NCBI GenBank assembly: GCA_963662655.2 | Contig: CAXXTU010000002.1 | Span: forward strand, 2,528,001 to 2,592,000 | Source: Candidatus Cloacimonadales bacterium | GTDB lineage: Bacteria > Cloacimonadota > Cloacimonadia > Cloacimonadales > JAIOQZ01 | Direction of reading: 5' to 3' | DNA: 64,000 nucleotides | Shown: positions 13,138 through 60,589 of the stretch, in pieces | Layout: each line of letters begins with the position of its first letter | Numbering within the stretch: the first letter of the stretch is position 1 | Notes under the pieces: generated by a model | Database searches by the model: none | Told to the model about the DNA's origin: nothing | What the model saw: only the letters and a program-made list of their open reading frames with translations | Translations under genes and position numbers: made by a program

Positions 13138-13273
13138 TCCCGCGGCCGGGGGCGGCGTAGGAAGCCCCGTTCCGGGACTTCCTGACTCCCTCTCCCTTTG
13201 GTTTCACGCCTTGAAACCAAAGGGAGAGGGAGTCGTGCGCGGAGCGCACACGCCGCCCCCGGCCGCTGAGTCG
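13138..13273 (+). repeat. Four-way-junction palindromic element, copy A
   Basis: TCCC, P1 (17 bp), P2, P3 (23 bp), P4 (GTGCGC-GGA-GCGCAC), P1', TGAGTCG. Same architecture as copies B, C and D. Confidence 0.85.
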
Positions 13274-13303
13274 TGGGAGCAATCCGGGAATGAGTTTTCT
13301 CCC

Positions 13304-13336
13304 AAAAAGAAAAGCCGGACAGAACCCTGTCCGGCT
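13304..13336 (-). terminator. Rho-independent terminator of the 745-aa gene
   Basis: AGCCGGACAG-AACC-CTGTCCGGCT with an adjacent A-tract. Confidence 0.75.
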
Positions 13337-13357
13337 GAAGAGATTATGATTAATCTA

Positions 13358-15595
13358 TTATTCGGCTGTGACTCGATAGAAGTATTTATTCGCGCCTGGA
13401 GCCGAATCGATGTAGCTGTTGTTTGTTGTCGTATCGTAAGGAGAGAATCCGGAATCGGGCAATGTTGAACGATAAACGTTGTACTGCGATGCGCCCGTAA
13501 CGGCTCCCCAGTTGATATGCATATCGCCGTCAATTTCCTCGATCACGATGTTGAGAGGCGTATCAAGCTGACCGCCGGAAACCTGCAGGGTGATCGGAAC
13601 GGTTACGTTGCCTTCATAGTCCGCGTTATGCACGATGACCAGCTCAGCGGTCTTCGTAGTTCCAGCCATGAGATCGGCGGAATCGAATCCGAGAGAGAGG
13701 TCAAGGTAATCGCGAGCGGAACCGGAAATCGTTCCACTTGAATTCGAGTTGATCGTCACCCAAGTCTCTGTCGCTTCAATCTCCAAAGCGAAGATATAAT
13801 CATTCGGAGTTCCCTGAACCATGCCAACGAGTACAAGCTTCCCATAGATGAGATCGGATGAGAACGAGCAGCCACCGGCCATCTGGTCGACACAATCGCC
13901 CACCAGCGGAGCCGTATAGGTGAGGCCCGTCAAAGCCTGAGTAACATGGTCGTATTGATAGAACGTGGTCTCGGGAGTTCCCGATTGCTCGTAGAACCAC
14001 AGTTTACCATTCACATCATCGTAAGCCATACCGTATGTAGAACTAATTCCGGGAGAAGGGATCACTTCAAGAACCGTCCCATCCGCGTTGAAGCGAACGA
14101 TGTCGCTTGCGAAACTCTTGGTGTAGAATCCATATCCCGGGACGTAAGCCAGAGCACGAATGCAGGTTACATTTCCGAATTCTGCCGCTGTGAATGTGAA
14201 CAGGACAGTCTGGGCTCCGGTAGCGGGATCAATGCGCACAAACGAAGTCTCGTTACCCGTGTAAAGGTACGTACCATCGTATGCGAGATCGCGATATCCC
14301 CAACCTGTCGAGGTTGCATCCTGTTCATAAGAGGCAATAAGGTTTCCTTGTCGATCAAGCTTGTAGACGTAATTCGGGTCGCTGTCGCTACCAGCACCAG
14401 TCGCCCAGAAATATCCGTTGACATACTCAACGCCGAGTAATTGGGTCTCGGAAGTTGGTGTTTGTGCATCAAGATCGAACACGACATCCCCAAGCTCTCT
14501 GGAAATCGTTGGGTTGGCTGAAACCGTCGGAGACGAATCGTTACGCGTGTTCGTGTTCATTCGCATACTCGATGACCATGCGTTTTGATTGAACTCACGG
14601 ACAGGCTGCATGAAATTGAGGTAGGCATGATACTCGAGATCGCCTGGCCCGTCGTTCGTTATCCGTATCGATTGAGACGAGGTCTGATCCACTGCCAGCG
14701 TCTCGTTCACATAAGTAGGATTTGTTTCGATTTCGGCCCATTTGAGGTAGAAATTCTGTACCGTTGTTTGATCTTCCGTAACGGTCACGATTGTTCCTTC
14801 ACTGAAATACGCAGAACCATCGGGAGCATAACACGCAACACCGTAATCGCCGACATAGATATCGTTGAATTCGTAGTATCCTTGCGCATTCGTGAGAGTT
14901 TCCTGTGTTCCGATACTCATCGTCGCGTTTTCAAGCGGTGTTGTTGATCCGTAAGCATAAACGTTACCTTGAATGTTTCCGGTAGCGGCCTCGGGCGCAT
15001 CGGCATAGATACGAGTAATCAATTCATAAGCTGCAGTACCTGTATCGTAATATGCCCAGTTCCCCGCTTCACCAACAACCGTGTGAATTGTCGCACCCGT
15101 TCCACGGTTTGTTGAAAGGCTTGAAGGGTGCCCGCTTGCATCCGCAGGGACAATCGCTACAATAAAATCATCATTTACCACCAATGGAGTTCTAAGCTCA
15201 TGAATCGTTTCGGTCGGGTATCTCTCTGCTTCAATTCCGAGTGTCTGATATAGAATGGTTGTTCCATCTGAGTCATAGATCCTGAAGTAAAATGTATCAT
15301 CTGGCCATGGATAGCTGGAATGTTCGTAGAAATAGTGTCCAATCGAAGAGATTGTGACAGGATAGGCCAGTCCGAAATCTGTTGTCATTTGAAAGATTGT
15401 ACCACGTTCAGGTGTTGGCCAGTTAAGGTTGGTCATTTCGGAAACGACAGCATACGAATACCATTGTGGATCTCGATCCATTTCTTGCGATGGTCGCTGG
15501 TCAAGGTCAATATCTGATATTGGCGCTTCCGTAACGGCACTCACAAAAGAGACCAGAACAAAACATAACATGAAAAAAGCAAATGACCTTTTCAT
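13358..15595 (-). CDS. Secreted multidomain protein (carboxypeptidase-regulatory-like domain, beta-propeller, C-terminal FN3-like domain)
   Basis: GGAGG RBS, signal peptide, GNIQGNV...TNAQGYYEF. The propeller and C-terminal domain are clearly similar to those of the S8 protein. Confidence 0.85.
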   Translation of the reverse strand: MKRSFAFFMLCFVLVSFVSAVTEAPISDIDLDQRPSQEMDRDPQWYSYAVVSEMTNLNWPTPERGTIFQMTTDFGLAYPVTISSIGHYFYEHSSYPWPDDTFYFRIYDSDGTTILYQTLGIEAERYPTETIHELRTPLVVNDDFIVAIVPADASGHPSSLSTNRGTGATIHTVVGEAGNWAYYDTGTAAYELITRIYADAPEAATGNIQGNVYAYGSTTPLENATMSIGTQETLTNAQGYYEFNDIYVGDYGVACYAPDGSAYFSEGTIVTVTEDQTTVQNFYLKWAEIETNPTYVNETLAVDQTSSQSIRITNDGPGDLEYHAYLNFMQPVREFNQNAWSSSMRMNTNTRNDSSPTVSANPTISRELGDVVFDLDAQTPTSETQLLGVEYVNGYFWATGAGSDSDPNYVYKLDRQGNLIASYEQDATSTGWGYRDLAYDGTYLYTGNETSFVRIDPATGAQTVLFTFTAAEFGNVTCIRALAYVPGYGFYTKSFASDIVRFNADGTVLEVIPSPGISSTYGMAYDDVNGKLWFYEQSGTPETTFYQYDHVTQALTGLTYTAPLVGDCVDQMAGGCSFSSDLIYGKLVLVGMVQGTPNDYIFALEIEATETWVTINSNSSGTISGSARDYLDLSLGFDSADLMAGTTKTAELVIVHNADYEGNVTVPITLQVSGGQLDTPLNIVIEEIDGDMHINWGAVTGASQYNVYRSTLPDSGFSPYDTTTNNSYIDSAPGANKYFYRVTAE

Positions 15596-15680
15596 TATTA
15601 CCTCCTTTGATCATTGAACAAATTTCTGAAACACAAATCATTTGCTGTCAAGAAAATCGCAGTAAAAAAACATCCGCCCA

Positions 15681-15723
15681 AAAAAGAAGCATCCTGTACA
15701 GCCCCTCACCGTACAGGATGCTT
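15681..15723 (-). terminator. Rho-independent terminator of the ECF operon
   Basis: AAGCATCCTGTAC/GTACAGGATGCTT 13-bp stem with an A-tract. Confidence 0.75.
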
Positions 15724-15739
15724 GATTATTCAGAATGGT

Positions 15740-16276
15740 TTAGAATCGGTTCTTGTGCTTTCCCGAACCTTGTTGAGCACCGGAATTCATGTGCTCTTCG
15801 CATTGTCCCTGAGGGTGCGACATTCCGCGTCCCATTCTCATTTCACCCCTCTCACCACGTGGTCCACGATGAGAGATCATTTTGAGGTATTGCGCCTTCT
15901 GCTCTTCATTCAGCTTGCTGTGAATCTGCTTCTGCATGTCCAGCCTGCCTTCCTGTAAATCAGCTTTTTTATTGCTGATTTGGCGTGACAACTTCTTTGC
16001 CTGATTGAAATCGCCGTCGTTGAGGGCTCCTTCAAGGTCCATCTCGAGCTTCTGGATATCCGCGTGGATATCGATCGTGCTTCTGCGGTGTGCAACCTGG
16101 ATATCTTCGATTTCTTCCTGCTGGGAATCCGTCAGATTCAAGCCTGCCATAAATCCACCGTGATGTGGTCCAAAAACAGGTTCTGCTTGCTCGCCAGGAT
16201 TCTCGTCATCTGCTGTAAGAAGAACAGCGAACATCATCATTGTTATTGCTATTGCGAGTGTGATATACCGATACAT
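15740..16276 (-). CDS. Spy/CpxP-family periplasmic protein
   Basis: Signal peptide; LNLTDSQQ and LNEEQK (LTxxQ) motifs; Gly/His/Arg-rich tails. Confidence 0.8.
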   Translation of the reverse strand: MYRYITLAIAITMMMFAVLLTADDENPGEQAEPVFGPHHGGFMAGLNLTDSQQEEIEDIQVAHRRSTIDIHADIQKLEMDLEGALNDGDFNQAKKLSRQISNKKADLQEGRLDMQKQIHSKLNEEQKAQYLKMISHRGPRGERGEMRMGRGMSHPQGQCEEHMNSGAQQGSGKHKNRF

Positions 16277-16288
16277 GATTCTCCTCCT

Positions 16289-16729
16289 TCAATCGGTCAA
16301 TCTTTGTGGTCTATCTTTTGGTCTGTCGTGTCTTGGATGGTCGTCTTTCATTTTGTCGAACATCATCAGACGTTGTTCCGGGGTCAGTTTCTCACGTGCA
16401 GCGATGAGCGTATTTCCAATAGTACGCTCCAGTTCCATGAGCATCCCCATTGAATACGACAACTTCTCCTGTAATTCATCGTTCGTCGTATTCGGATCCC
16501 TCAAGGCTTTCATGAAATCTTCCTTCGCTCTGCTGAAGCGGGAACGGCACATGTGAATCTCTTTACGATTTTCTTTGATCAATTCCAGAAATTCTGGATG
16601 CGGCTTCCTGGGAAAATCCGGTGGAAATGGCGGTTTCGCTATGTATCTGTGATATATGAAGGTTCCCAGAAACGCCAGGTTGAACGCGATCGATATGATC
16701 AGGAGTATTCCGGTTAAGCGCTTGCTCAT
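16289..16729 (-). CDS. Membrane-anchored periplasmic heavy-metal-sensor/Spy-like protein
   Basis: N-terminal SIAFNLAFLG helix and LTPEQR motif. Confidence 0.7.
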   Translation of the reverse strand: MSKRLTGILLIISIAFNLAFLGTFIYHRYIAKPPFPPDFPRKPHPEFLELIKENRKEIHMCRSRFSRAKEDFMKALRDPNTTNDELQEKLSYSMGMLMELERTIGNTLIAAREKLTPEQRLMMFDKMKDDHPRHDRPKDRPQRLTD

Positions 16730-17115
16730 TTTCCGCCCCCCATATCAAAGCTGTAGAGCGTTTCCGTGCCCAATGTTATATCCGTGTATTGCGTCGCGCT
16801 ACGGGAGGCCATGTCTCCGCTCATCACTACGCCCAGGAAGAACGCAGCCGCGGCCGTCAATGCGATCGATAGACGTGCAAACCAGCCAAGGCTCCGGGCG
16901 ATCTTCCCTTGGGGTATCGCCAGTATCCGCGCGATTGCTACCTGAGGTACCGGTTCCTCTTCGTACTGTGACAGAAAATCGTTAACCGAGGACAACTCCG
17001 CCAGTTCATGACGGCATTGTTCGCACTGATCCAGATGACGCCGAACCGTATCCATGTCTTTCAGTTCGCCATCCAGGTAGGCGTTCAGTTTGCTTCTGAT
17101 TTCTTCACATTTCAT
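16726..17115 (-). CDS. Zinc-finger (zf-HC2) anti-sigma factor
   Basis: C...L.AYLDGEL......HLDQCEQC (HxxxCxxC) plus a TM helix, downstream of the ECF sigma. Confidence 0.85.
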   Translation of the reverse strand: MKCEEIRSKLNAYLDGELKDMDTVRRHLDQCEQCRHELAELSSVNDFLSQYEEEPVPQVAIARILAIPQGKIARSLGWFARLSIALTAAAAFFLGVVMSGDMASRSATQYTDITLGTETLYSFDMGGGK

Positions 17116-17157
17116 CTTTCACTCCCCGGTCGATCTATCCTACCGACCGTCACATAT

Positions 17158-17667
17158 TCAGACATCGCCCCTGGCGAAATCCTGCGATAAATATTGTTTC
17201 AGTTTGCGCTTAGCTCTTATCAGCAAGGAATCTACCGCCGAAACCGTCGAATGCATGATCTCGGCAATTTCCTGATAACTTTTATTATCATAGTACTGCA
17301 AGTTAAGAGCCGACGCTTCACGTTCATTCAGTTTTCCTATAGCCTGTCTCACCTTTGCATTCTTCTCTTCCCGCATCCGCTTCTCTGGATCGAATACAAG
17401 ATCGCTCGACTCCAGAAGCTCAGGCATTTCCAATTCCGTATTCCGGCTTCTCTTCTTGATCAGATTGATCGCCTTGTTATGTGCTGTGCGATAGAGGTAC
17501 GATTCATAATATTCCTCATCCACTTTCGGCATTTTCTCGTAAAACGCGGAGAAAACCTCTTGCAAAAGGTCTTCCGCATCTTCGCGACTGCGAACCATCC
17601 GAAGCAGATAATTGAACAGCTTTTGGCTGCATGCTGAGACTACCGTCTCGAATCGATCTCTATTCAT
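17158..17667 (-). CDS. ECF RNA polymerase sigma factor
   Basis: Region 2 motifs DAEDLLQEVF and YLYRTAHN; region 4 SYQEIAEIM...V...L.RAK. Start placed at MNRDRF (GGAG RBS). Confidence 0.9.
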   Translation of the reverse strand: MNRDRFETVVSACSQKLFNYLLRMVRSREDAEDLLQEVFSAFYEKMPKVDEEYYESYLYRTAHNKAINLIKKRSRNTELEMPELLESSDLVFDPEKRMREEKNAKVRQAIGKLNEREASALNLQYYDNKSYQEIAEIMHSTVSAVDSLLIRAKRKLKQYLSQDFARGDV

Positions 17668-17817
17668 GAACACTCCGCAAACAAATACATCCCATAATCG
17701 TAAAACCTGCAATTATTTTCTTCCGATAAGTGAAATAAAACGCGAAGCTTTCTCTTTTGATTGCGTCGTCTGTCATGCACATACTTTTCGAGGTGGATAA
17801 ATTCAAGCTCTATCAAA

Positions 17818-17950
17818 CGGCTCAGCGGCGCGGCGGCGTGTGTGCTCCGCACACAGCACGTCATGGAGGTTTTTTTACTGAAAAACTCCATGACGTGCCG
17901 GGAAAGCCCAAAAAGTTGTTTTGGCTTTCCCACGCCGCCGCGGCGCGGGA
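17818..17950 (-). repeat. Four-way-junction palindromic element, copy B (inverted relative to A)
   Basis: On the - strand: TCCC, GCGCCGCGGCGGCGT, GGGAAAGCC..GGCTTTCCC, GGCACGTCATGGAG..CTCCATGACGTGCT, GTGTGC-GGA-GCACAC, ACGCCGCCGCGCCGC, TGAGCCG. Confidence 0.85.
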
Positions 17951-18048
17951 ACCGCGCCCCTCTCTCCCACCTACTGGCACACAAAACCGGAAATGATTGA
18001 CATTCACAGAAACATCCTGCAAAGTGTGAAATCACGTTTGGAGGCTAG

Positions 18049-20319
18049 ATGAAGACAGATAGGAAGAAGCATCCATCATTGTTCGACGACTTCAAGGATC
18101 ACATGAACAAGGCATTCGGAGCGATCCACAACTGCGATCTCGACACCGGCGAGACCGAGCTGGAAAAAATGCAGGCAATCGTCGAGAAGTCCAGCCATCC
18201 GGATGATCATGGCTTGCTGTGCATTGCGAAATTCAAGCTGGAAGACGGCAAACGTAGATTCGACAAAGCGATCGAGTGGCTCGAGAAAGCCCGTGAGTTT
18301 TTCAATCAATCAGGCAGCATCAATCGGCTGATGATCGTATACTTCGAAGCTGCCAGCGCTTATTTCCGACAAGGAGAATACAAGCTCGCCATCGAGAATT
18401 TCAATCTCGCAATCGATTGCGCGGACAAGACAAATGACATCGAAAACAAGGCGAACATCATGAATAATCTCGGCGAGTGCTACATCTTCATGAATCAGAA
18501 CTTGCTGGCGCTCGACTACACGATGAAAGCCCTGGCGATTCGCGAAGAATTGAAGCAGAAGCAGAAGATTGGTCTTTCACTCACAAACGTGACCCGAATC
18601 TACAACAACCTGGCTGAATACGATAAAAGTCTCGAATACGGACTGAAAGCGCTGGAAATTTTGAAGAACTCTCCGGGACTTGCCGTCTATGCGAACGCCC
18701 TGAATACCGTAGGCATAACATATTATTGTCTGGAAAACTACGATCAAGCACTCGAGTACCTGTACCAGTCTCTTGAGCTCAAAGAGAAACAGAGGAATCC
18801 CATAAGGATTTCCAATACCCTAAACAGCATCGCCAATGTATATATGAAACAAGGACAACTCGAAGAAGCAAAGAAGCTTCATACGGAAGCGCTCAAGATC
18901 AGACAGGCAAACAACGCACTTGAATTGATAAGTCGATCCAAGCTGCGCTTAGCCGATATTGCATATAGAATGGGAGATACGAACCAAGCGGAAAAGCTGT
19001 GCCTTGAAGCGGCCTCCCACCTGAAAGAAAACAACCAGCTTCTCCTGGAATTATACGACCTCCTTGCCTCCATTTACCAAGCCACTGAGGCCTACCCAAA
19101 GGCCTGCCATTATCACAACGAGTACCGGAAACTATTCAAGACGGTGGCCGAACAAACCAACGATCATCGTCTTGCCGAGATGCGGACCAGATTTAAGCTG
19201 GAGCAAAAAGATCGCGAGACGGAACTCCTCATTGAAAAGAACCATGAGCTGGAAGAGAAAAACAAAATGATCCTGAGCCAGAAGGAGCGACTCGACGAAA
19301 CGCTTGACGAACTCAGGAGAAGCGAGCGAAATCTCGATTTCCTCACCGAGGAGATCAAAAGCAGCTTCGAGACGCGCATCATCGGCAGAAGCGAGGCGAT
19401 GCAGAATATCCTGCGCCTGATGTCGAAGGTTGCCCAGGCGGATGACACGTCCGTCTTGATCATGGGAGAAAGCGGTACCGGGAAAGAACTCGTGGCCCGT
19501 GGAATCCACGAGATGAGCCGGCGGAAAAGTAAGTATTTCCATGCGATCAACTCCTCGGCCATCTCGTCGAGCTTGTTCGAGAGCGAATTCTTCGGCTACG
19601 AAAAAGGCGCGTTTACCGGCGCGCTGGATCGAAAGGCTGGCTGGTTCGAAGTTACCGACGGAGGAACCTTGTTCCTCGACGAGATCGGCAACATGCCCCT
19701 GGATCACCAGATTAAACTACTGCGCGTCCTGGAAGAAAGAAACATCATTCGAGTCGGAGCCAGACATGAAATCCCGGTGAACGTCCGCGTGATCTCGGCC
19801 ACAAACCTGAACCTTCTCGATCTCGTCGACAACAAGACATTCCGGGAAGACCTCTATCACCGCCTAGCTGCGTTCGTCATCAATATTCCGCCGCTCCGTG
19901 AGCGAAGCGAGGATATCCAACCGCTCGTCGAACACTTCGTGAACCTCTACACCACGCGAATGAACAAACCCATACGCCGCATCGACCCCGGTATCTACAA
20001 CGCACTTTCATGCTACGCTTTCCCGGGGAATATCCGGGAACTGCGCAACATGGTGGAGCGTGCGCTGATCATCTGCGACAGCTCGACGCTGCAATTCAAA
20101 CACTTCAGCATCCCGGCGAACGGAAAGCAAAAATCCCCGGATATCCCCGACGATATCATCCCGATCGATACGCTGGAAAGAACCATGCTCCTGCGAGCCC
20201 TTCGCAGAACAGGCAACAACCAGACCCAGGCAGCGAAATTGCTCGGGCTTTCCCAGAAAGCCGTCGAACGCCGCATCAACAAATTCGATTTACGCAAGGA
20301 GCTTGAACCCAGTCAATAG
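18049..20319 (+). CDS. TPR-repeat sigma54-dependent enhancer-binding protein (TPR, coiled coil, AAA+, Fis HTH)
   Basis: Tandem TPRs; GESGTGKE, GAFTGA, TLFLDEIG, FREDLYHRL; C-terminal NQTQAAKLLG. Confidence 0.92.
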   Translation: MKTDRKKHPSLFDDFKDHMNKAFGAIHNCDLDTGETELEKMQAIVEKSSHPDDHGLLCIAKFKLEDGKRRFDKAIEWLEKAREFFNQSGSINRLMIVYFEAASAYFRQGEYKLAIENFNLAIDCADKTNDIENKANIMNNLGECYIFMNQNLLALDYTMKALAIREELKQKQKIGLSLTNVTRIYNNLAEYDKSLEYGLKALEILKNSPGLAVYANALNTVGITYYCLENYDQALEYLYQSLELKEKQRNPIRISNTLNSIANVYMKQGQLEEAKKLHTEALKIRQANNALELISRSKLRLADIAYRMGDTNQAEKLCLEAASHLKENNQLLLELYDLLASIYQATEAYPKACHYHNEYRKLFKTVAEQTNDHRLAEMRTRFKLEQKDRETELLIEKNHELEEKNKMILSQKERLDETLDELRRSERNLDFLTEEIKSSFETRIIGRSEAMQNILRLMSKVAQADDTSVLIMGESGTGKELVARGIHEMSRRKSKYFHAINSSAISSSLFESEFFGYEKGAFTGALDRKAGWFEVTDGGTLFLDEIGNMPLDHQIKLLRVLEERNIIRVGARHEIPVNVRVISATNLNLLDLVDNKTFREDLYHRLAAFVINIPPLRERSEDIQPLVEHFVNLYTTRMNKPIRRIDPGIYNALSCYAFPGNIRELRNMVERALIICDSSTLQFKHFSIPANGKQKSPDIPDDIIPIDTLERTMLLRALRRTGNNQTQAAKLLGLSQKAVERRINKFDLRKELEPSQ

Positions 20320-20441
20320 ACGAAAACGTCTCCGCTAGACGATATCGTCTATGATGGCCAAATCACCCGAAAAACGGATCACGCAGCGTTTTTGTTCTTT
20401 TTTTTATCAGATCACACGGGCACACTAGACGATTCCGTCTA
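20317..20441. promoter_or_regulatory. Three palindromic TAGACG-N4-CGTCT(A/C) sites, putative enhancer (UAS)
   Basis: Sites at 20317-20332, 20336-20351 and 20426-20441, upstream of a sigma54 promoter. Confidence 0.7.
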
Positions 20442-20515
20442 TACATTTGAATGAAAAATTTTACAATCAAAGTCAGCAACAGCATAACCTATTGTATTAT
20501 ATAAATTAAGCACTT

Positions 20516-20531
20516 TGGCATCCATTATGCA
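20516..20531 (+). promoter_or_regulatory. Sigma54 (-24/-12) promoter
   Basis: TGGCATCCATTATGCA matches GG-N10-GC, preceded by an AT-rich tract and next to a sigma54 activator gene. Confidence 0.75.
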
Positions 20532-20557
20532 ATCCTGCTATAGAAAAAGGAAGCGTG

Positions 20558-20896: not shown

Positions 20897-20931
20897 GAAG
20901 CATTATAATCTATAAAAAAGGAGCAGTTGCT

Positions 20932-35227: not shown

Positions 35228-35246
35228 CCTCAGATTACGTTTTTTT

Positions 35247-35415
35247 GCCTGCGGTATTCGTGATGGGGTCTTGCAAATGAACCTAAGAACGTAGAGGGAA
35301 TCGAGCCTCGTGCGGCGCGCAAGCCGGACATGATCCGGATTCGTCAAGTGCGTAAGGTAGATACCCACCTTGTGTGGGGGTTCTGCGAGCAATATTTCAC
35401 ACGGTATCGCGGGTT
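35247..35415 (+). ncRNA. ssrS: 6S RNA
   Basis: Lies between zapA and rny. Closing stem CCTGCGGTATTCGTG/CACGGTATCGCGGG; GAACC..GGTTC, GGGA and CCCACCT motifs around a central bubble. Ends are approximate. Confidence 0.8.
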
Positions 35416-35563
35416 TGCATTTTCCAGGCAATGTAAATCCTTTTGTCGATTATCGAGACATGCCTGAGCCGTTTTGGGAAATTTCTCCACATTGTCGACC
35501 TTTCGGGATACTGCGGGATTCCGGGCTGGCCTTGTGTAAATAAATCAAAGTGAGGTAATTGTA

Positions 35564-47171: not shown

Positions 47172-47183
47172 AAGGTACTTCCT

Positions 47184-51412: not shown

Positions 51413-51421
51413 ATTGGTTGA

Positions 51422-51652: not shown

Positions 51653-51721
51653 GGTTGTCTCCTAGTATTTTTTGTTCCAAAAAGCCCGTCTGAGACCGAA
51701 TTGTAAAGAAAATTCTCGACT

Positions 51722-52708: not shown

Positions 52709-53832
52709 CTGAACCACATCCAGCCGATGGTAACGAAGGTGAAGGTTATCGCACCCATCAGTACCTGATAGCCCATCGTCTTCGGCGTCTTGATCTTACG
52801 CTTGCGTTTGTAATAAATCCAGAGCTGGTAGACCGCGATGCCTGCCCCGTGCCAGATGCCCCAGTACATGAAATGCCAGGCCGCCCCATGCCAGATGCCG
52901 CACGCAGCCATTGTGATAATGGGAACGCACACCAGCGACCAGATCACCTTACGGCTAACCCGGCTCAGCGGGAAGAAAAGGTAATCGCGAATCCATTCCG
53001 AAAGCGAGATGTGCCAGGTCGCCCAGAAACGGCTCATGTTGGTTCGGAAATAGGGATTGTTGAAGTTCTCCATGATTTTCAGGCCCAGGATTCTCGATGA
53101 GCCGATCGCGATATCCGAGTACCCGGCAAAGTCGGTGTAAATCTGGATGGAATAGCCCAGTAGCGCGAGCGCTCTCATCCAGAAGGAAGCGCTGTCCCAC
53201 CAGGGCTGTATGAAATAGCCGATCCAGTCGGCAATAACAAGCTTCTTGAAGAGGCCGAACACGATTCTCTGGAAGCCAATCCACACATTCTGCCAGCTCT
53301 GGTGATTTTCCTCAAGCTGGGGCTGGTAACGGGAAAAACGTTCAATGGGGCCGGCCACAAAGATTGTGAACAAGGAGCTGTAGCTCAGAAATTCCAGGAA
53401 GCTTCCGCGTTGGGCGATCTTCCAGTTGAGGTCGCTGAGGTAGCTGATATGCTTGAAGGTGAGGTATGATATTCCAAGGGGGAGCAGCAGGTTTTCGATA
53501 CGGAAATCGGGAAGGCTGGAGACAAACTGAGCCAGGTGACTCAGGGTTCCCGATAGAAGTCCGAGGTACTTGAACGCAATGAGCGCTCCGAGGATCCCGA
53601 TGATTCCGATTCGGAGGAATATCGCCTTCTTGTATCGATCCAGCAGCCAGGCGAACAGATAGGTCCATACGGTTATACAAAGCGTCACCACGGCGGCCGA
53701 GCGATCGAGATAAGCCACAAAGGCGAGGCTGGAAAGGCTCAGAAAGCCTACACGTATCTTACTCCAGGGAAGAATCCGATAAACGATCGCCACCAGAACA
53801 AGATACGCGAAAAAGGGAAGGCTGATAATCAT
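52705..53832 (-). CDS. MBOAT family acyltransferase (DltB/AlgI-like), copy 1
   Basis: Same motifs as copy 2; differs by one residue (IAQRG vs IAKRG). Confidence 0.92.
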   Translation of the reverse strand: MIISLPFFAYLVLVAIVYRILPWSKIRVGFLSLSSLAFVAYLDRSAAVVTLCITVWTYLFAWLLDRYKKAIFLRIGIIGILGALIAFKYLGLLSGTLSHLAQFVSSLPDFRIENLLLPLGISYLTFKHISYLSDLNWKIAQRGSFLEFLSYSSLFTIFVAGPIERFSRYQPQLEENHQSWQNVWIGFQRIVFGLFKKLVIADWIGYFIQPWWDSASFWMRALALLGYSIQIYTDFAGYSDIAIGSSRILGLKIMENFNNPYFRTNMSRFWATWHISLSEWIRDYLFFPLSRVSRKVIWSLVCVPIITMAACGIWHGAAWHFMYWGIWHGAGIAVYQLWIYYKRKRKIKTPKTMGYQVLMGAITFTFVTIGWMWFR

Positions 53833-53841
53833 ATTGGTTGA

Positions 53842-54072
53842 TTAATATCTTTCGATGATCTCGATCATCTGGCGTACCGTGTCGAACGATTCCGCGGTTA
53901 TTACCGGAGCGGGAATGCGTTTGCCAAACTCGGTCTCGATAAATTGCTGCAAGGAAACAAGGGAGAACGAATCGATCAGGCCGGACGAGATCAATTTCGT
54001 ATCCACGTCGATGACTACATCGTCTTCTTCCACAAACTCGTCGATTATGAATTCTATTAGCTTTTCTTGCAT
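53842..54072 (-). CDS. Acyl/aminoacyl carrier protein (DltC-like), copy 1
   Basis: Identical protein to the copy at 51422-51652. Confidence 0.9.
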   Translation of the reverse strand: MQEKLIEFIIDEFVEEDDVVIDVDTKLISSGLIDSFSLVSLQQFIETEFGKRIPAPVITAESFDTVRQMIEIIERY

Positions 54073-54141
54073 GGTTGTCTCCTAGTATTTTTTGTTCCAA
54101 AAAGCCCGTCTGAGACCGAATTGTAAAGAAAATTCTCGACT

Positions 54142-55125
54142 TCAGGCTTTCTTCTGGCGGTTCGGATAAGTCTTGCTAAATGCTTTCTCGAGTAGTTCGC
54201 CAAGCTTTTTATTGCCTTCAACGTTCAAATGCCCTGCGCCATTGAAGCAGTTCTTCGGCTGCAAAACACTTTCATCCGAATAAAAGTGGATTCCGTTCTC
54301 TTCGCAGAAATCTTCCAGCATTTTATTTTCTCGCGCATCGTTATCAAACGAGACCAGAAGGAAGTCGTCGCCGAAGCTCTTATGAAACTGAAGAATCGAT
54401 TCCTTCATCGCTTCGGGGAATCCGGGGATTCGGGCAATTTCTTTTGGAGCGTTACTTTCACTTTTTCTTCGCAGAATCGTATGGAGCGCGCGAGTCATAA
54501 GGTTTGCCAAATGAGATTTTTGTCTGACAGCTTCTTCAATCTTCACAATCAATCCCGGAGTTGCTGGTTCACCGAAGTTTTGTGGAATCGTGAAATCAAG
54601 AGGAGTCTTATACGGAACCAGCCACTCGTTGAACAGGCTTTCCACCGGCAGTATTACCTTGTCGGGTTGATAAATTCTCGCCAGGAACATCGTTCGGTAC
54701 CAGGCAAGATATGGATCATGCTTTGCTGCTGCCGCATTGATAACCCGGTATTTTCCCGGATCACTATCTTCCAGAAGCTTGTGGAAAACCGCCGTGGCAA
54801 TTTCATCCTGCGGTATATGGTAAGCTTCAATGAACGATGATCCTGCGACCATGATCGTTTGCTTGTCAGCATCCAGATCCACATCGTTTCCCGGAAGTCC
54901 CAGGTTGTTGCGACGATAGACATGGTTTCCGCCTTCCACCGCCCAGAATTTCGAATATGGTTCATACAGGATCAAAAGACGATTTTTACTGATTGAAGGA
55001 ATGAATCTTCGACGCTCGCGTCGCGATATCACTGGATAACCGATAACAGAACATGCGACTAGTTCCCCCAAAACAAGGGCCGTCACCAGCGCAGCGGTAA
55101 CAATCATTACATTCTTCATCTTCAT
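54142..55125 (-). CDS. Membrane-anchored SGNH/DltD-like protein, copy 1
   Basis: N-terminal TM helix; AGSSF, NAAAA, GHLN..GN. Confidence 0.8.
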   Translation of the reverse strand: MKMKNVMIVTAALVTALVLGELVACSVIGYPVISRRERRRFIPSISKNRLLILYEPYSKFWAVEGGNHVYRRNNLGLPGNDVDLDADKQTIMVAGSSFIEAYHIPQDEIATAVFHKLLEDSDPGKYRVINAAAAKHDPYLAWYRTMFLARIYQPDKVILPVESLFNEWLVPYKTPLDFTIPQNFGEPATPGLIVKIEEAVRQKSHLANLMTRALHTILRRKSESNAPKEIARIPGFPEAMKESILQFHKSFGDDFLLVSFDNDARENKMLEDFCEENGIHFYSDESVLQPKNCFNGAGHLNVEGNKKLGELLEKAFSKTYPNRQKKA

Positions 55126-55256
55126 ATCGTAATTATTCCATATTAGCTTCGTGTGGGATATTCATGCCCTGGCATTCAATAAACGCGAACCCTTTTATCA
55201 TGTAAAGCTTTTTCGGCTTTTCCCCCGACCCCGCTATCAATCGATGGCAACCTCCA

Positions 55257-55383
55257 TCCCGCGCGCGGGGCGGCGTAGTAAGTCTTTTCAAGACTTACTG
55301 ACACGTTTTCCTTGCCGTGAGCGCTCACGGCAAAGAAAGCGTGCCGTTTGCCCTGCAAACACGCCGCCCCGGGCGCTGAGTCG
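55257..55383 (+). repeat. Four-way-junction palindromic element, copy C
   Basis: TCCC, GCGCGCGGGGCGGCGT, AGTAAGTCTT-TTC-AAGACTTACT, long imperfect P3, GTTTGC-CCT-GCAAAC, ACGCCGCCCCGGGCGC, TGAGTCG. Confidence 0.85.
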
Positions 55384-55403
55384 GGCAAACCAATTCGAGG
55401 CTG

Positions 55404-56198
55404 TCAAGTGTTTCGCAGGATAATCTTATGGAAGCGGCGCGTCAGGAACACGATCATGATGGTCGCGGCGATCATGAGCGACGACAGTGCGTTGATCGTG
55501 GTAATGGTTCCTCTGCGAATGCCGCCTTCCACGTATATGGGCAGCGTCGTGAAACCTCGCCCCGTGGTGAAGAAGGTGATGATGAAATCGTCGATGGAGA
55601 GGGTGAATGCCAATAGCGCGGCGGCGATAATCCCCGGCATCATCATCGGCAGCTTGATCTTGAAGAACGTCTGCCACGGGTTCGCACCTAAATCCATGGA
55701 CGCTTCCAGCAGGGAACTGTCAAATCCGTCCAGCCGCGACCGGATAACGATCACCGCATACGACAGACAGAACGTTACGTGAGCGATCAGGACAGTGAAC
55801 AGTCCCGTTTTCACGCGCAGGAAGCTGTAGAACATAGCCATGGAAACACCCATGAGAATGTCAGGCATGATAAGCGGAATGAACACCAGCACCGTTAGCA
55901 GTTTCCTGCCCTTGAACCGGAGATTCTCAAGGGCCAGCGCGCCAAGCGTACCGAGCACGGTGGAAATAATCGTGGAAAGGAACGCAATCAGCATCGTGTT
56001 GCGGAACGCAATCCGTATATTCTCGTTTTGCACGAGATCGATGTAATACTTGAACGTGAAGCCCTTCCAGCCTGCAACGATCTTCGAATCATTGAAACTG
56101 TATATGATCATGATCAGTATCGGGATGTATAGAAAAATCACCGCGAACGTGAATATCGTCAGGTTCATGCCCTTGTAAAACTTCTTGCTGTTTTTCAT
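55404..56198 (-). CDS. potC: Spermidine/putrescine ABC transporter permease
   Basis: FLYIPI..MIIYSFN, EASMDLGA, FTLSIDDF. Confidence 0.85.
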   Translation of the reverse strand: MKNSKKFYKGMNLTIFTFAVIFLYIPILIMIIYSFNDSKIVAGWKGFTFKYYIDLVQNENIRIAFRNTMLIAFLSTIISTVLGTLGALALENLRFKGRKLLTVLVFIPLIMPDILMGVSMAMFYSFLRVKTGLFTVLIAHVTFCLSYAVIVIRSRLDGFDSSLLEASMDLGANPWQTFFKIKLPMMMPGIIAAALLAFTLSIDDFIITFFTTGRGFTTLPIYVEGGIRRGTITTINALSSLMIAATIMIVFLTRRFHKIILRNT

Positions 56199-57073
56199 TG
56201 GCGGCTCCTCTCCCGCTTGTATCTGCGAGTCAAAAAGAATAGAATCACACTCACCAAAACCAGAAGAACGAGCGATAGCGCGGATGCGACCGGCCAGTTA
56301 CGTGGTATGTTCTTGATTTTGTACGTGATGATCTGTCCAATGAACAGGGAGTTCTGATGCCCCACCAAGTGAGGGATGATGTAGGTTCCCAGCGCGGGAA
56401 TGAATACGAGGATGATGCCGGAGAATATCCCCTCTTTCGAAAGGGGAAGCGTAACCTTGAAGAAGGAAAGAACCTCGTTCGCACCCAAATCCTTCGCCGC
56501 ATCGAGAAGGGTGAAATCCATCTTCTCGATTGCGCTGTAGAGCGGAAAAATCATATAAGGCAAATAGACGTATACCGTTACGAGGATGACCGCGAAATCC
56601 GTACGAAGCAGCCTCAAAGGCTGGTCGATCATGTTCAGGAACAACAATAGCTCGTTGAGTACCCCGTTCGTGGAGAGGAACACCCTCCAGGAGAAGATGC
56701 GAATGATGAAGTTTGTCCAGAACGGAATGATGATGAGCAGCAGAAACGTGTTTTTAAATCTCGCGGAGCTCCTGGCGATGTAATACGCCACCGGATACCC
56801 GAGCAACAGGCACAGGAGCGTTGTCCAGAACGCCAGCCGGAACGCCAGCATGAACGGTCTCAAATACGTTGGACTGAACACCTGCCGGAACGCCTCCAGC
56901 GAGAATTGAAATTTCACATCGTAAATCGTTGTCGTCAGGAAGCTGTACAGAACGATGATAAAATACGGCACCAGGAAAAAGATGACCAGCCATGAAATGA
57001 CCGGCGCCGAAAGAATCCAGCTATGCGTATTCTTTTTCTTGTGAATTCGGACTTCCGTAGGTGTTCCAGCCAT
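56195..57073 (-). CDS. potB: Spermidine/putrescine ABC transporter permease
   Basis: LGYPVAY, IPFWTNFIIR, YLPYMIFPLY, AAKDLGA. Confidence 0.85.
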   Translation of the reverse strand: MAGTPTEVRIHKKKNTHSWILSAPVISWLVIFFLVPYFIIVLYSFLTTTIYDVKFQFSLEAFRQVFSPTYLRPFMLAFRLAFWTTLLCLLLGYPVAYYIARSSARFKNTFLLLIIIPFWTNFIIRIFSWRVFLSTNGVLNELLLFLNMIDQPLRLLRTDFAVILVTVYVYLPYMIFPLYSAIEKMDFTLLDAAKDLGANEVLSFFKVTLPLSKEGIFSGIILVFIPALGTYIIPHLVGHQNSLFIGQIITYKIKNIPRNWPVASALSLVLLVLVSVILFFLTRRYKRERSRQ

Positions 57074-58260
57074 TAGTCTCGCCTGTTCTCCGGATTGCTC
57101 TGGTCGAGGATATTGAGATCCTCCTTGCGGTAGTCCCCTTCCACCTCTTCGATGATGTGCGTATCGGTGTCATGCCAGTAAAGGTAAACTTCCTCATCCC
57201 AGTCGAGGGCTTTATCGTCGAAATAAACGCGTTTATGCTGATTGAACACCCGGAACCTGAGATCGTCCACACGCACGATGTACTGCGTGTGCGTTCCGAG
57301 GTAAAGGATGTCCTCGATAATCCCCGAAAGAACATTGAAGTCGTCCTGATCCTCCGGTTTTGTCCGGGAAATGGCGATCTTCTCCGGTCTGAGCGACACC
57401 GTTATATTCTGCCCAATCTCGGGGACGCGCTGGAAGGTGCTGTCGAACTCGAACCCCTCTCCCGTTTCGGTTTCATATCGCAGATCGACGTAATTATCCT
57501 CGATGCCCAGAACCTTCGCGGGGATCATGTTGGTATCGCCAATGAAGTAGGCGGAAAAAATCGAATTGGGACGTTCATAGATATCGTCTGGAGGGCCTTC
57601 CTGGATAATCTGCCCTCTATTCATCACCGCGATCCGGTCGGAGATACTCATCGCCTCGTCCTGATTGTGGGTAACGTAGATGAATGTAATACCCACCGCG
57701 TCGTGGATGTTCATGAGTTCGATGAGCATGTGCTGACGCAGCTTGAGGTCCAGCGCGGCAAGCGGTTCATCGAGAAGAAGCACCTCGGGGCGGTTGACCA
57801 GCGCTCTTGCGATGGCGATTCGTTGTTTCTGGCCCCCACTGAGCTGACGGGGATATTTTGCGTGCTGGTCTTCCATCTTGACCAGCTTCAGCATTTCCAT
57901 AACGCGGTCCTCGATTTCGTTCTTCCGGATTTTCTGAATGCGGAGTCCGAACGCGGTATTGTCGAAAACGGTCATGTGTGGGAATAGCGAGTAGTTCTGG
58001 AAGATCGTGTTGACCTTACGCTTGTATGCAGGGACTTCCGTGACGTCCTGTCCCGAAATGAAGATACGTCCCTGGGAAGGCACTTCGAATCCGGCTATCA
58101 TTCGCAGAAGCGTGGTTTTTCCACAGCCGCTGGGGCCGAGAAAGGAGTAAAGCTCTCCCTGCTCGATTTTCATGTTTACGTTGTCAACAGCCATCAATTG
58201 CTCAAACGCCTTGCTGAGATTCTCCAAACGTATCGCTTCCAATACTTTTCTCCTATTCAC
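57073..58260 (-). CDS. potA: Spermidine/putrescine ABC transporter ATPase
   Basis: GPSGCGKT, FQNYSLFPH, LSGGQKQR, LLDEP. The true start may be TTG at 58242 (AGGAG RBS). Confidence 0.88.
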   Translation of the reverse strand: MNRRKVLEAIRLENLSKAFEQLMAVDNVNMKIEQGELYSFLGPSGCGKTTLLRMIAGFEVPSQGRIFISGQDVTEVPAYKRKVNTIFQNYSLFPHMTVFDNTAFGLRIQKIRKNEIEDRVMEMLKLVKMEDQHAKYPRQLSGGQKQRIAIARALVNRPEVLLLDEPLAALDLKLRQHMLIELMNIHDAVGITFIYVTHNQDEAMSISDRIAVMNRGQIIQEGPPDDIYERPNSIFSAYFIGDTNMIPAKVLGIEDNYVDLRYETETGEGFEFDSTFQRVPEIGQNITVSLRPEKIAISRTKPEDQDDFNVLSGIIEDILYLGTHTQYIVRVDDLRFRVFNQHKRVYFDDKALDWDEEVYLYWHDTDTHIIEEVEGDYRKEDLNILDQSNPENRRD

Positions 58261-58353
58261 ATCATTGAAAACACGTGCGCAAAAGAAATGAACCGTCCAT
58301 TTTTACGCAATTCTTTTTTCAAACGATTTACCACGACAGAGGATGCTTAAAAC

Positions 58354-58395
58354 TGCAAAACCCCTCGACGGTTCTGCACGCCGAAGGGTTTTGCA
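58354..58395 (-). terminator. Hairpin, probable terminator
   Basis: TGCAAAACCC/GGGTTTTGCA stem just past the stop at 58417. Confidence 0.5.
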
Positions 58396-58416
58396 TGAAA
58401 ATGGTACTCGGGGTCG

Positions 58417-59580
58417 TTAACGTATGTCTTCACCGCGATCTACGTAATCAATTGTGTTGATGGGTACAATCTGGTTCGTCTGGTCAATCTTGAAGACGTG
58501 CCAGACCGTCCCTTTCTTATTGGCCGGAACCTCAAAAGAGCCCATCAGCTTGTTATCGCCATACACCTGAACGCGTGCTCCGCTCGCTGAGAGTCGCCGG
58601 TTCCGGGAGGAATGACGATTGGAATAATCGTGAACAGCATAGTAGTAATCGCCCTTTGCCGGCTTGTAGATCGTGATGGTCTCCGGGCCATAGCTCGAGG
58701 TATCGTCGCGATCCAGGAAATCCTTCCCTCCGATCAGCATCTTGTGCCGGTACCAGATATGGAAATCTCCGCCGTCGGGATTCGGGCCCGAGAGATGGGC
58801 ATCCAGATCACGGGGACGAGATCCCCACGTCAGAACGATGCGGATGTTTTTGATTTCAGGGGTCATCGCGCATACAACTTCTCTCGGATTCTCGTCGAAA
58901 CCCATGTTGACGTTGAAGCTGCACGGTATGAAGCCATGTTTCTGAAACTGGAGCGTGTAATCTCCCGTTTCAACATCGGCCATGTAGATGCCTGCTTCAA
59001 CTTCCTTCAATTCGATGAGCTGATTGTCTGCGGATGTCGCTGCAACCTTCACATCCGGCAGGGGTTCTCCGGTAACGGCATGAACCGCCTGCGCGAGAAT
59101 GATCCGGTTCTTCGGAAAATATCGCAGCTCGGTATCAACCTCGCCTTCCGACACATCTAGTGTGAAGACCTTGCATACCATGCCGTACGAATCGGGGACT
59201 TCTATCGTCTTCACCGGAAAACCGTCTTTGTAAACCACGACTTTCGGATTGGCCCGTGCGATGAGCTCCATATCGGCGTTGATGTCCTGATCGCCGAACT
59301 TATCGCGTATCCAGAACGTGAAGAATCCATACTCGGACTCGATTACAAATTTCTGGCTGGCGTCCATGTCGCTTTCCTCGCCGATAGACTTGATCTTGCC
59401 ATCGAGCGCTGATTCCTTTGCAACGCCCTGCACAAATCCGTTTTCTTCGCCAATGGTTCCGCTCAAAACTCCGTTGAGGTCGCCTTCAAACTCGTCCCAG
59501 AGGAGCTCAACCTTCCAGGTTGCGCCATACAGCGCGAATACAAGAAGCATAACTGTTAGCAAGGCAATGTATTTCTTCAT
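58417..59580 (-). CDS. Secreted protein with carboxypeptidase-regulatory-like and YfaP/DUF2135-like domains
   Basis: Signal peptide MKKYIALL; IVLTWG..PRDLDAHL...LDRDDTSSYGPETITI. Confidence 0.78.
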   Translation of the reverse strand: MKKYIALLTVMLLVFALYGATWKVELLWDEFEGDLNGVLSGTIGEENGFVQGVAKESALDGKIKSIGEESDMDASQKFVIESEYGFFTFWIRDKFGDQDINADMELIARANPKVVVYKDGFPVKTIEVPDSYGMVCKVFTLDVSEGEVDTELRYFPKNRIILAQAVHAVTGEPLPDVKVAATSADNQLIELKEVEAGIYMADVETGDYTLQFQKHGFIPCSFNVNMGFDENPREVVCAMTPEIKNIRIVLTWGSRPRDLDAHLSGPNPDGGDFHIWYRHKMLIGGKDFLDRDDTSSYGPETITIYKPAKGDYYYAVHDYSNRHSSRNRRLSASGARVQVYGDNKLMGSFEVPANKKGTVWHVFKIDQTNQIVPINTIDYVDRGEDIR

Positions 59581-59634
59581 AAGGCCCCCATTTATAAAAT
59601 AATCATCTGCAATTCGCTTCAATGTCAAGCTTTT

Positions 59635-60405
59635 TTAAGGTTTTACAGCCACATCAATTTCCGCAACAAGCAATCCATCCGTTAACAGAGGTTTCTGTGC
59701 AACCACCTTCCCATCCTTGTCAACTGCCCACGCTCCGCCGCAGTACCGGCTTCCGCCTTGATCTACATCAGACAGCAGGTTAACAGCAAGAACAGGTGAG
59801 TTTAAGCGCTGCCATCGTTCAAGATAGAACGGTAACTCCTCAACATCCCATTGATCCTGCAAGCCTTCATGATCCTTTATTGCCCTGGCAAATGGATAGA
59901 GAAATAGACCCGGCTTTACAGCATTGACCCGTTCGATCAGGCCGTCATCGAAAAGGTCTCCGCATATCAGAATGCCAATACGACCAAACGATGTGTCCAC
60001 AAACACTTCTTCATTTCCGCACCGGTAGACATTTGCAGGAAATACGGGATTATACCAGCCAGAACTTTGCCTGCGATAATGCAGAACATCGTTTCCGCCT
60101 TTATCGACGAGAAGATAGCTATCGTAAATAGACGATTCATCCCGCTCGATAAAGCCGAAGCCGACATAGATATCATGCACCTTCGCCAAGCTGCGAATCG
60201 CGACGATCTCATCATCTTCAATACTGTGCGCTTTCACGTAATCTTGCTCGGGAATCCCATTGATATCGAGTCCGGTGAGGCAAGTCTCCGGAAAGAGAAC
60301 CATATCGCATTCCCTGCCAGCAGCAATCGAAACACATCGCTCGATGCTTCGAAGCGTTGCACCGATTTCCTCTTCAAGCTTGAACACACACAGCGCTGTT
60401 TTCAT
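59635..60405 (-). CDS. Carbon-nitrogen hydrolase (nitrilase superfamily)
   Basis: LFPET, FGFIER, GRIGILICGD; GAGGAG RBS before MKTAL. Confidence 0.85.
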   Translation of the reverse strand: MKTALCVFKLEEEIGATLRSIERCVSIAAGRECDMVLFPETCLTGLDINGIPEQDYVKAHSIEDDEIVAIRSLAKVHDIYVGFGFIERDESSIYDSYLLVDKGGNDVLHYRRQSSGWYNPVFPANVYRCGNEEVFVDTSFGRIGILICGDLFDDGLIERVNAVKPGLFLYPFARAIKDHEGLQDQWDVEELPFYLERWQRLNSPVLAVNLLSDVDQGGSRYCGGAWAVDKDGKVVAQKPLLTDGLLVAEIDVAVKP

Positions 60406-60470
60406 CCTACTCCTCACTCATGATCGAAATGCAGCTAGCTCAACGATAATCAGTCTCGAATTCGCCCTTC

Positions 60471-60589
60471 CGACTCCGCGGCGGCGGCGTGTTTGCTTCG
60501 CAAACGACTCCCTTCCGATGCTGTTTTGGGTTTAACAGCATCGGAAGGGAGTCAGGAAGCCTTAGGCTTCCAACGCCGCCGCCGCGGGA
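60471..60589 (-). repeat. Four-way-junction palindromic element, copy D (inverted relative to A)
   Basis: Read on +: CGACTCC, GCGGCGGCGGCGT, GTTTGC-TTC-GCAAAC, 20-bp stem GACTCCCTTCCGATGCTGTT, GGAAGCC-TTA-GGCTTCC, ACGCCGCCGCCGC, GGGA. Confidence 0.85.

Follow-up and report, generated by a model that had tools for sequence, protein, structure and literature searches.

Repetitive extragenic palindromes (REP), bacterial interspersed mosaic elements (BIME) and miniature inverted-repeat transposable elements (MITE) shape genome organisation, transcript stability and rearrangement in bacteria, and for most of them the moving enzyme defines the class. REP, BIME and REPIN (REP doublets forming hairpins) sequences are mobilised by RAYT, a Y1 HUH transposase. 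Here we describe a branched, four-armed intergenic repeat that has grown from one to 61 copies in one species without a recognisable mobilising gene. Four copies (A to D) lie in a 64,000-nucleotide stretch of the genome of a Candidatus Cloacimonadales bacterium (the window, G000:C2:2528001-2592000; the G000 assembly comprises 3.81 Mb on two contigs, C1 and C2, and is 98.95% complete). All copies fold into the same four-way junction, in which a closing stem (P1) surrounds three hairpins (P2, P3 and P4), and they show an unusual split between invariant parts and parts that are hypervariable yet paired. We favour, with about even confidence, the reading that these elements are a small structured DNA repeat with a REP/MITE-like lifestyle, which spread between the genes of this species as a non-autonomous mobile element. 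Among the three explanations offered by the initial annotation (a mobile or REP-like element, a protein-binding junction mimic or a noncoding RNA), the first fits best.

The element shares with the REP, BIME and REPIN repeats of Proteobacteria its GC-rich, palindromic, intergenic and species-specific character, its dozens of copies in both orientations at gene ends or between operons, and a short asymmetric motif at the foot of the stem. It is, however, a branched unit of 105-208 nt between the P1 ends, whereas a REP consists of one imperfect hairpin of 20-40 nt or of an inverted pair; its foot motifs are TCCC and TGAG(T/C)C, whereas REP palindromes are tagged with GTAG or CGTC (surveyed in PMC3733652); and it has two hypervariable arms and no Y1 transposase gene in its genome. 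Bacterial MITEs such as Correia/NEMIS, ERIC and RUP (general account in PMC3184786) resemble it in length (100-200 bp), in terminal inverted repeats (here the P1 arms), in being noncoding, in lineage-specific bursts and in a filled/empty orthologous site, but for the element we see neither a target-site duplication beside P1 nor a parent insertion sequence (IS) with the same ends, and its interior is made up of three nested palindromes that are conserved at their bases only. Palindromic elements derived from IS200/IS605 (PATE) are marked by a lagging-strand-template bias and by the presence of the Y1 transposase TnpA; the element has neither (30 versus 28 copies; no Y1 gene). The palindromic repeats of the Lobosphaera incisa mitochondrion, as far as the abstract describes them, are likewise GC-rich intergenic palindromes that proliferate without a known transposase, although they belong to another host compartment and differ in sequence (PMC4524435). 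The element thus lacks what defines RAYT-linked REPs, MITEs with a parent IS, IS200/605 derivatives and every Rfam family, and is like them in lifestyle only. No Rfam family matches it, either at gathering thresholds across the window or in E-value mode on seven loci, where sub-threshold matches to miRNA hairpins and tfoR reach at most 34.7 bits against cut-offs of at least 70 and mostly occur on both strands. Full-text searches for four-way-junction or cloverleaf intergenic repeats returned general REP and MITE reviews and organelle palindromes, none of which, judged by title and abstract, describes this architecture. The earlier statement that the family is unnamed is in agreement with both searches.

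By merging covariance-model matches with motif scans we obtained 61 loci in G000, 58 on C2 and three on C1, as anticipated when only the four window copies had been seen. The motif scans gave 41 copies; the covariance model (R1), for which only the P1 and P4 pairs of 21 short copies were used, yielded at E<=0.01 58 matches, reverse-strand duplicates among them, and the family thus greatly exceeds chance. One alignment from the model search (A3) had reverse-strand rows mixed in and did not enter the counts. According to crude gene calls all 61 copies are intergenic, and they are spread evenly through the genome. One locus was only folded, and the anatomy given below is that of the remaining 60 copies. 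P1 is GC-rich, with a core of GGCGGCG-N / N-CGCCGCC and, as innermost pair, T-A (43 copies), C-G (10) or G-C (seven). Its arms are perfect or near-perfect terminal inverted repeats of 10-17 bp in most copies, reaching up to ~35 nt where the pairing extends into the flanks. P4 is 15 nt long (a 6-bp stem with a 3-nt loop) in 57 of the 60 copies, the stem being GTGCGC in 34, GTGTGC in 15, GTTTGC in eight and one of three others in the rest, and 359 of its 360 pairs over all copies are Watson-Crick. The loop is GNA in 43 copies and forms, with the closing G-C pairs, the motif GCGNAGC. According to a 2026 review (PMC13037366), this DNA mini-hairpin is extraordinarily stable, resists nucleases and is present at the origins of single-strand replication. 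The loops of P4 are seen in either sense (GAA 20, GGA 16, GCA 5 and GTA 2 versus TTC 1, TCC 2 and TAC 1).

The other two arms behave differently. P2 has a short form of 16-32 nt (33 copies; consensus GGAAGCC-loop-GGCTTCC) and a long form of 64-95 nt, mostly 85-95 (27 copies), which has the same base and an inner hairpin, and then a T-rich bulge. P3 measures 40-52 nt in 48 copies and ~17-22 nt in eight. Its pairing over all 60 copies amounts to 1048 Watson-Crick and 37 G-T pairs with 65 internal unpaired bases, and 22 hairpins are flawless. The basal 5-8 bp of P3 define sub-lineages (GACTCCC, GATACG, GAGAAYG and GGCAG..TTTTGAAA..), and similarity between P3 hairpins falls from base to tip. Overall, P2 and P3 have conserved bases, which mark sub-lineages, and tips that differ in nearly every copy yet remain paired. 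The initial annotation had P2 and P3 changing almost completely while staying paired; the mirrored changes are real, but the bases are conserved and the stems are not flawless. Unpaired junction bases are absent in 23 of the 60 copies. The unit is polar, P4 always lying beside the 3' arm of P1, and it is framed by flank motifs in about half of the copies, namely TCCC before P1, and TGAG(T/C)C followed by GGG after it. Under a strict pattern, 30 copies have the 3' motif and 19 have both; reading the flank table raises the count for the 3' motif to ~35. An interior turned round with respect to its flanks (flip/flop inversion) was also considered and applies to at most 2-4 of the 60 copies (for example C2:516046 and C2:2402085).

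The family is confined to one genus in the genomes scanned. Among 40 relatives from the same order, the covariance model gives one match each in the congeners G001 and G002; G003 yields a weak match in a lenient search that folding shows to be a true copy, so that each of the three congeners has one, and the model finds none in the other 37 genomes. With stricter filters, a phylum sample of 150 genomes from 53 genera likewise contains no copy in 148 of them, matches being limited to this genus. BLAST against plasmids and phages returned nothing. A pattern scan of public genome contigs returned only chance matches in GC-rich genomes and an unrelated repeat of Lachnospiraceae and Eisenbergiella. 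The latter, multi-copy in Lachnospiraceae UBA3332 and in metagenome-assembled genomes of uncultured Eisenbergiella (L040, L054, L055, L067, L075, L079 and others), starts with AAAAAAGTGTGCGC-NNN-GCGCACACGCCGCGTCGAGCGCGGTTGCCG.CAGGCAAC... and is a chain of small hairpins without a closing stem, which has a P4-like hairpin in common with the element by chance or convergence. A candidate analogous family in G006, from another genus of the same family, was dismissed, the pattern matches being ordinary coding DNA.

Comparison of copies within and between these genomes points to movement of a defined unit. The closest pairs of copies are 91% identical over 164 nt, 91% over 120 nt and 84% over 170 nt, with unrelated flanks, and their alignments begin and end within a few bases of the P1 ends. 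The single copy in G002 is ~90% identical to the G000 copy at C1:115424 through P2, P3 and P4, and their flanks do not align; this pair has the same P3, which is otherwise unique to each copy, and coding DNA of G000 and its congeners is only 64-80% identical. The copies of G001 and G003 occupy one and the same locus, flanked by a QueD-like/EngB operon and a gene for a zinc-ribbon membrane protein, and the orthologous spacer in G000 is empty, giving a filled/empty site at one locus. These two orthologues retain the P1 core, P4 and the P2 and P3 bases although the spacer around them is largely unalignable, and their tips are wholly different (P2 of 43 versus ~105 nt, P3 of 25 versus ~62 nt). With the junction at its centre, the whole insert is a long, imperfect palindrome that reaches two back-to-back -35 boxes (GTCAAACAT/ATGTTTGAC); G000 has only GTCAA-N9-TTGAC there. 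Paralogous empty sites within G000 were not informative.

How the arms change and remain paired bears on what the fold means. In the alignment of the 21 short copies, 99.7% of P1/P4 cells are paired, and sliding the partners destroys this pairing; changes on both sides of a pair account for 28 cells versus 9.8 in shuffles, and none of 500 shuffles reaches 28. In P3, mirrored changes number four of four between C2:725583 and C2:1813547, and three of three in the base of the G001 and G003 orthologues. Covariation is significant, further copies are present and no known family matches, so that on the three points by which the initial annotation could have been overturned it stands. Its step from extensive compensatory change to a selected structure is not established, because template switching mirrors changes without selection and gives the same pattern. 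Template switching (quasipalindrome correction) is described as homogenising the arms of inverted repeats, inverting spacers and expanding arms (PMC8794818, PMC8604942, PMC13100816, PMC7202029), and the family shows three such patterns, namely changes mirrored between arms, P4 loops of either sense, and palindromy that reaches into the flanks. The likeness to hairpins attributed to this process (PMC8794818, PMC8604942, PMC7202029) extends to mirrored arm changes, flipped loops and palindromy growing outwards as at the G001/G003 locus. The mirrored changes fit selection on pairing as well as template switching, and the two are not distinguishable here. The family plainly cautions against taking an abundance of "compensatory" changes as the mark of a functional RNA. 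Template switching does, however, explain only the paired arms and leaves the P1, P4 and flank motifs shared by 61 loci and by the orthologues unexplained, for which copying between loci is needed. The most plausible role of these near-invariant parts is that of a surface recognised by a copying agent or a host factor. A capture origin of P3 from local or other genomic DNA was rejected, because nothing else in the genome matches P3, because P3 matches its own flanks no more than expected, and also because P3 hairpins form sub-lineages by descent. Against their own flanks (+/-200 nt) the mean longest match is 7.0 for P3 and 7.6 for P2, compared with 7.2 and 7.8 against the flanks of other copies.

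We read the element as mobile DNA on four grounds taken together: its burst in a single species, the boundaries of the unit, the filled/empty site, and the near-identical copy that another species carries at an unrelated locus. An enzyme acting in trans or borrowed from the host would recognise the conserved junction-proximal parts, probably in the form of a folded single strand or an extruded cruciform, whose nucleation the stable GCGNAGC mini-hairpin of P4 would assist. The tips of P2 and P3 would then be free to change, their self-complementarity being kept mainly by template switching, with or without selection for the fold.

Several results weigh against this mobile-element reading. G000 has no match to the Y1/HUH transposase family that includes RAYT (Pfam PF01797; 0 matches, with 6 of 14 control genomes positive) and none to an IS110-type DEDD transposase, for which the controls were also positive; a search of G000 for an IS91 Y2 enzyme was empty as well, but its control was silent and the result is uninformative. 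We found in G000 no longer element with the same terminal repeats, unpaired or distant P1 half-sites being chance matches in coding DNA, and the resident ISL3-family IS is excluded as parent, having ends (GGCACTGTTGCA...) unrelated to the element. No target-site duplication appears at the boundaries in the flank tables or the closest pairs, although the true ends may lie beyond P1, because the flank motifs belong to the unit. Family-pattern scans of metagenome contigs and viral contigs gave nothing. The single filled/empty locus could equally reflect a deletion in G000, the orientation statistics given below rest on crude gene calls by longest open reading frame (ORF), and P1 and P4, conserved in the G001/G003 orthologues and near-invariant over 61 copies, could be maintained by the host for a function.

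Other candidate movers and vectors were also set aside. The ends of an IS4-like DDE element are unrelated to the repeat. The only reverse-transcriptase match in G000 (C2:981409-981954, L162) is split by an in-frame TGA into one ORF of 148 aa and one of 358 aa. It resembles stand-alone reverse transcriptases of the defence type, and was rejected as mover, being a lone, interrupted gene at an unrelated locus. The 136-kb contig C1 was rejected as a plasmid vector, since it carries housekeeping genes, among them mutS, rho, valS and glyS. The ISL3-family IS (DDE_Tnp_ISL3 with a zinc ribbon, 411 aa) is present in 12 full copies and one partial copy, for example at C2:1265251-1266598 (L147); its copies are often inserted in A/T runs beside terminators, and one ends 9 nt from the element at C2:2159040. 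The 3' foot of the element at C2:510898 abuts a 62-nt end fragment of the IS4-like element (GGGTATAAAATGACACCCC...), which has a locus at C2:1722662-1722723 (L148) and further end copies at C2:1619255, C2:3289859 and C1:20792. A bolder proposal, which we consider improbable, would make these "cloverleaf" elements a distinct, undescribed class of prokaryotic mobile DNA that spreads as a self-folded four-way junction without Y1 or IS110 enzymes, through a host junction- or hairpin-processing enzyme that recognises the closing stem and the GCGNAGC arm, the other two arms evolving freely by arm-to-arm templating.

The same conserved parts could instead mark a DNA structural site maintained by the host. 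Each copy would then serve at an operon border as a site of binding or extrusion, in the form of a cruciform or a static four-way junction, for a nucleoid protein, a topoisomerase or a protein that binds junctions, and host selection would keep P1 and P4. BIME and REP sites, which bind gyrase and IHF in Escherichia coli, provide a model for such a role. The retention of the P1 core, P4 and the P2 and P3 bases between G001 and G003 despite a diverged spacer, the intact fold in all 61 copies, the position of eight of nine checked copies exactly between operons, and the 6+3+6 palindrome of P4, typical of a dimer site and containing the stable GCGNAGC hairpin, are all in agreement with it. However, each congener has a single copy and G000 lacks the one common to two of them, so that no conserved host requirement is apparent; the copies are spread evenly without preference for a type of spacer; a 61-fold expansion in one species is more typical of selfish spread; and we know of no partner protein for the element. 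We consider a host-maintained site doubtful.

Orientation and transcription context bear mainly on a role as RNA. The spacers that hold copies comprise 36 tandem, 13 convergent and 11 divergent ones, mirroring genome spacers of at least 150 nt (576/192/243). In tandem spacers 12 copies are co-oriented with the genes and 24 opposed (p=0.065); orientation relative to genes is weakly skewed and not significant, in line with the original remark that it is not tied to the flanking genes. Many copies lie just past a terminator or upstream of a promoter. Inspection of the flanks by eye places ~20 of the 60 no more than ~80 nt downstream from a hairpin and T-run in the same orientation. The conserved G001/G003 copy sits between two divergent promoters. 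A C-terminal sorting tail of the type IX secretion system (T9SS) is present in ~214 of 2397 crude ORFs of at least 150 aa in G000, including those at window positions 10586-13015 (-) and 13358-15595 (-), and T9SS-tail genes make up 21 of 120 element neighbours versus 8.9% genome-wide (p=0.0025; ~2.3-fold enriched). No neighbour gene recurs beside the copies, recombinase-like genes included, with large paralogous families the only exception. Wobble pairing is symmetric, with 93 G-T pairs on the named strand versus 88 on its complement; no feature singles out either strand as a functional RNA, which favours the DNA reading.

A structured RNA, whether a transcribed 3'-end stabiliser, a processing site, an mRNA insulator (as for REP or BOX-like repeats) or a small RNA family, would accord with the very stable folds, the copies that follow a hairpin and T-run in the same orientation, the mild excess of T9SS-tail genes among the neighbours and the fixed internal polarity, with P4 beside the 3' arm and TGAG(T/C)C on the 3' side. 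Against it stand the missing Rfam match at gathering thresholds and the generic sub-threshold hairpins, mostly on both strands; the symmetric G-T wobbles; the prevalence of opposed over co-oriented copies in tandem spacers; and the location of many copies after terminators or before promoters, together with the G001/G003 copy between divergent ones. We judge such an RNA unlikely, and the suggestion of a new noncoding RNA in the initial annotation gains no support from the symmetric wobbles, the occurrence of both orientations in tandem spacers or the conserved copy between divergent promoters.

The P4 motif also recalls signals that act on single-stranded DNA. GCGNAGC has been located at the origins of phages G4, ST-1 and alpha3, at ssiA and in the N4 hairpin promoters, and the G4 origin likewise has several adjacent hairpins (PMC13037366). 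The element could, by analogy, be an initiation or hairpin-promoter signal, a priming or loading site on single strands like the complementary-strand origins of phage G4 or ssiA, given that GCGNAGC is found in 43 of 60 P4 hairpins within a multi-hairpin single-strand fold. GC skew places the replication origin near 2.76 Mb and the terminus near 0.80 Mb, and the lagging-strand template corresponds to the named strand in 30 chromosomal copies and to its complement in 28. This lack of bias, the one copy per congener and a likeness limited to a 7-nt motif make an initiation signal very improbable.

Gene order around the copies was examined for nine of them. Eight lie at the edges of conserved gene blocks, between operons, and the flanking blocks are apart in all three congeners; the ninth, copy D, has one flank without a counterpart in the congeners. 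For copy B, the neighbour gene common to the three congeners now adjoins an ISL3 copy in G000, 93 kb from any element, and for copy C the partner breakpoint is 30 kb from any copy. The rearrangements were not attributed to recombination between copies, because the partner breakpoints do not fall at copies. The elements mark operon borders that were reshuffled in this lineage, with no sign of having caused the reshuffling. The copies at C2:2159040 and C2:2239170 share 340 nt of identical flank, are inverted and ~80 kb apart, and are each bounded by ISL3; they represent a segmental inverted duplication or an IS-bounded invertible segment.

These breakpoints, found at eight of the nine copies, and the narrow P3 length (40-52 nt in 48 of 60) despite copy-unique sequence would suit a programmable recombination site, at which hypervariable P2 and P3 act as a guide-like target specifier for a recombinase and the copies drive rearrangement. 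However, P2 and P3 arms match their own flanks no better than those of other copies and have no other match in the genome, the two G000-specific breakpoint partners lie 93 kb and 30 kb from any copy, one of them abutting ISL3, and G000 has no IS110-type enzyme. We regard a programmable site as extremely unlikely.

The four window copies exemplify this anatomy. They were confirmed at the positions and strands first reported and fold into P1 and three hairpins, at energies between -80 and -113 kcal/mol (z-scores from -9.4 to -15.0). Not one of 200 dinucleotide shuffles gives as good a fold, and the complementary strands fold equally well. P1 spans 15-17 bp. The arms and hairpins given here are placed by the fold, and the 3' motifs by the flank tables. 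Copy A (13138-13273, + strand; -113.4 kcal/mol, z -13.8; R1 match 13133-13277, 102.5 bits) consists of TCCC, P1, P2, P3, P4, P1' and TGAGTCG. Its 17-nt P1 5' arm, GCGGCCGGGGGCGGCGT (13142-13158), pairs with the 3' arm (13250-13266); between them lie P2 (13159-13183, 25 nt, with a GGAAGCC-type base), P3 (13184-13234, 51 nt, a 23-bp perfect stem without another match in the genome, on the GACTCCC base also present in D) and P4 (13235-13249, GTGCGC-GGA-GCGCAC, which contains GCGGAGC, a form of GCGNAGC), and the conserved asymmetric motif TGAGTCG follows at 13267-13273. Copy B (17818-17950, - strand; z -9.4; R1 match 17814-17957, 92.5 bits) has a 15-nt P1 5' arm with one mismatch (17932-17946), a 32-nt P2 (17900-17931), a 45-nt P3 (17855-17899), P4 (17840-17854, GTGTGC-GGA-GCACAC) and a P1 3' arm (17825-17839) followed by TGAGCCG (17818-17824).

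Copy C (55257-55383, + strand; z -9.5; R1 match 55252-55387, 93.1 bits) opens with a 16-nt P1 5' arm containing one mismatch (55261-55276) and a 23-nt P2 (55277-55299); its 42-nt P3 (55302-55343) has two 1-nt internal loops and two unpaired junction bases on each side, and is followed by P4 (55346-55360, GTTTGC-CCT-GCAAAC, whose loop is not GNA) and the P1 3' arm (55361-55376) with TGAGTCG (55377-55383). Copy D (60471-60589, - strand; z -15.0; R1 match 60467-60598, 107.4 bits) comprises a 15-nt P1 5' arm (60573-60587), a 17-nt P2 (60555-60571, GGAAGCC-TAA-GGCTTCC), a 48-nt P3 with a 20-bp perfect stem on the GACTCCC base (60506-60553), P4 (60491-60505, GTTTGC-GAA-GCAAAC, containing GCGAAGC) and the P1 3' arm (60476-60490), then AGTCG (60471-60475). 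That P4 is always a 6-bp stem with a 3-nt loop holds in all four. The description of helices abutting without linker bases applies to the minimum-energy folds of A and B but not to C, with 2+2 unpaired bases, or D, with 1+1.

Several further features were noted in these genomes. A single Rfam family, 6S/SsrS RNA at 35243-35419 (+), exceeds its gathering score in the window, with 62.8 bits against a cut-off of 46.4. Two identical stretches of at least 129 nt, 2.4 kb apart within coding sequence at window positions ~50539 and 52959 (G000:C2:2578539 and 2580959; - strand), suggest a tandem gene duplication. Elsewhere in G000, a coding stretch (TGAGCTTCTC...GACGTGGACGTTGTACACGTCCACGCCGCC...) occurs in four near-identical copies at C2:2559, 485631, 2748784 and 3314889, a multi-copy gene. 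The region C1:11000-20000 (L154) holds the remnant of a Mu-like transposable prophage, with a Mu transposase C-terminal domain, a TniB-like ATPase, a Mu F-like protein and a CI-like repressor, and adjoins an OLD-family nuclease and a type III restriction-modification pair. Finally, the G002 locus orthologous to the left flank of copy B (L143, C14:183550-184450) carries at ~250-450 another MITE-like element, with terminal inverted repeats of ~28 nt (TTGTAGGGGC...GCCCCTACAA) enclosing two tandem copies of ~27 nt.

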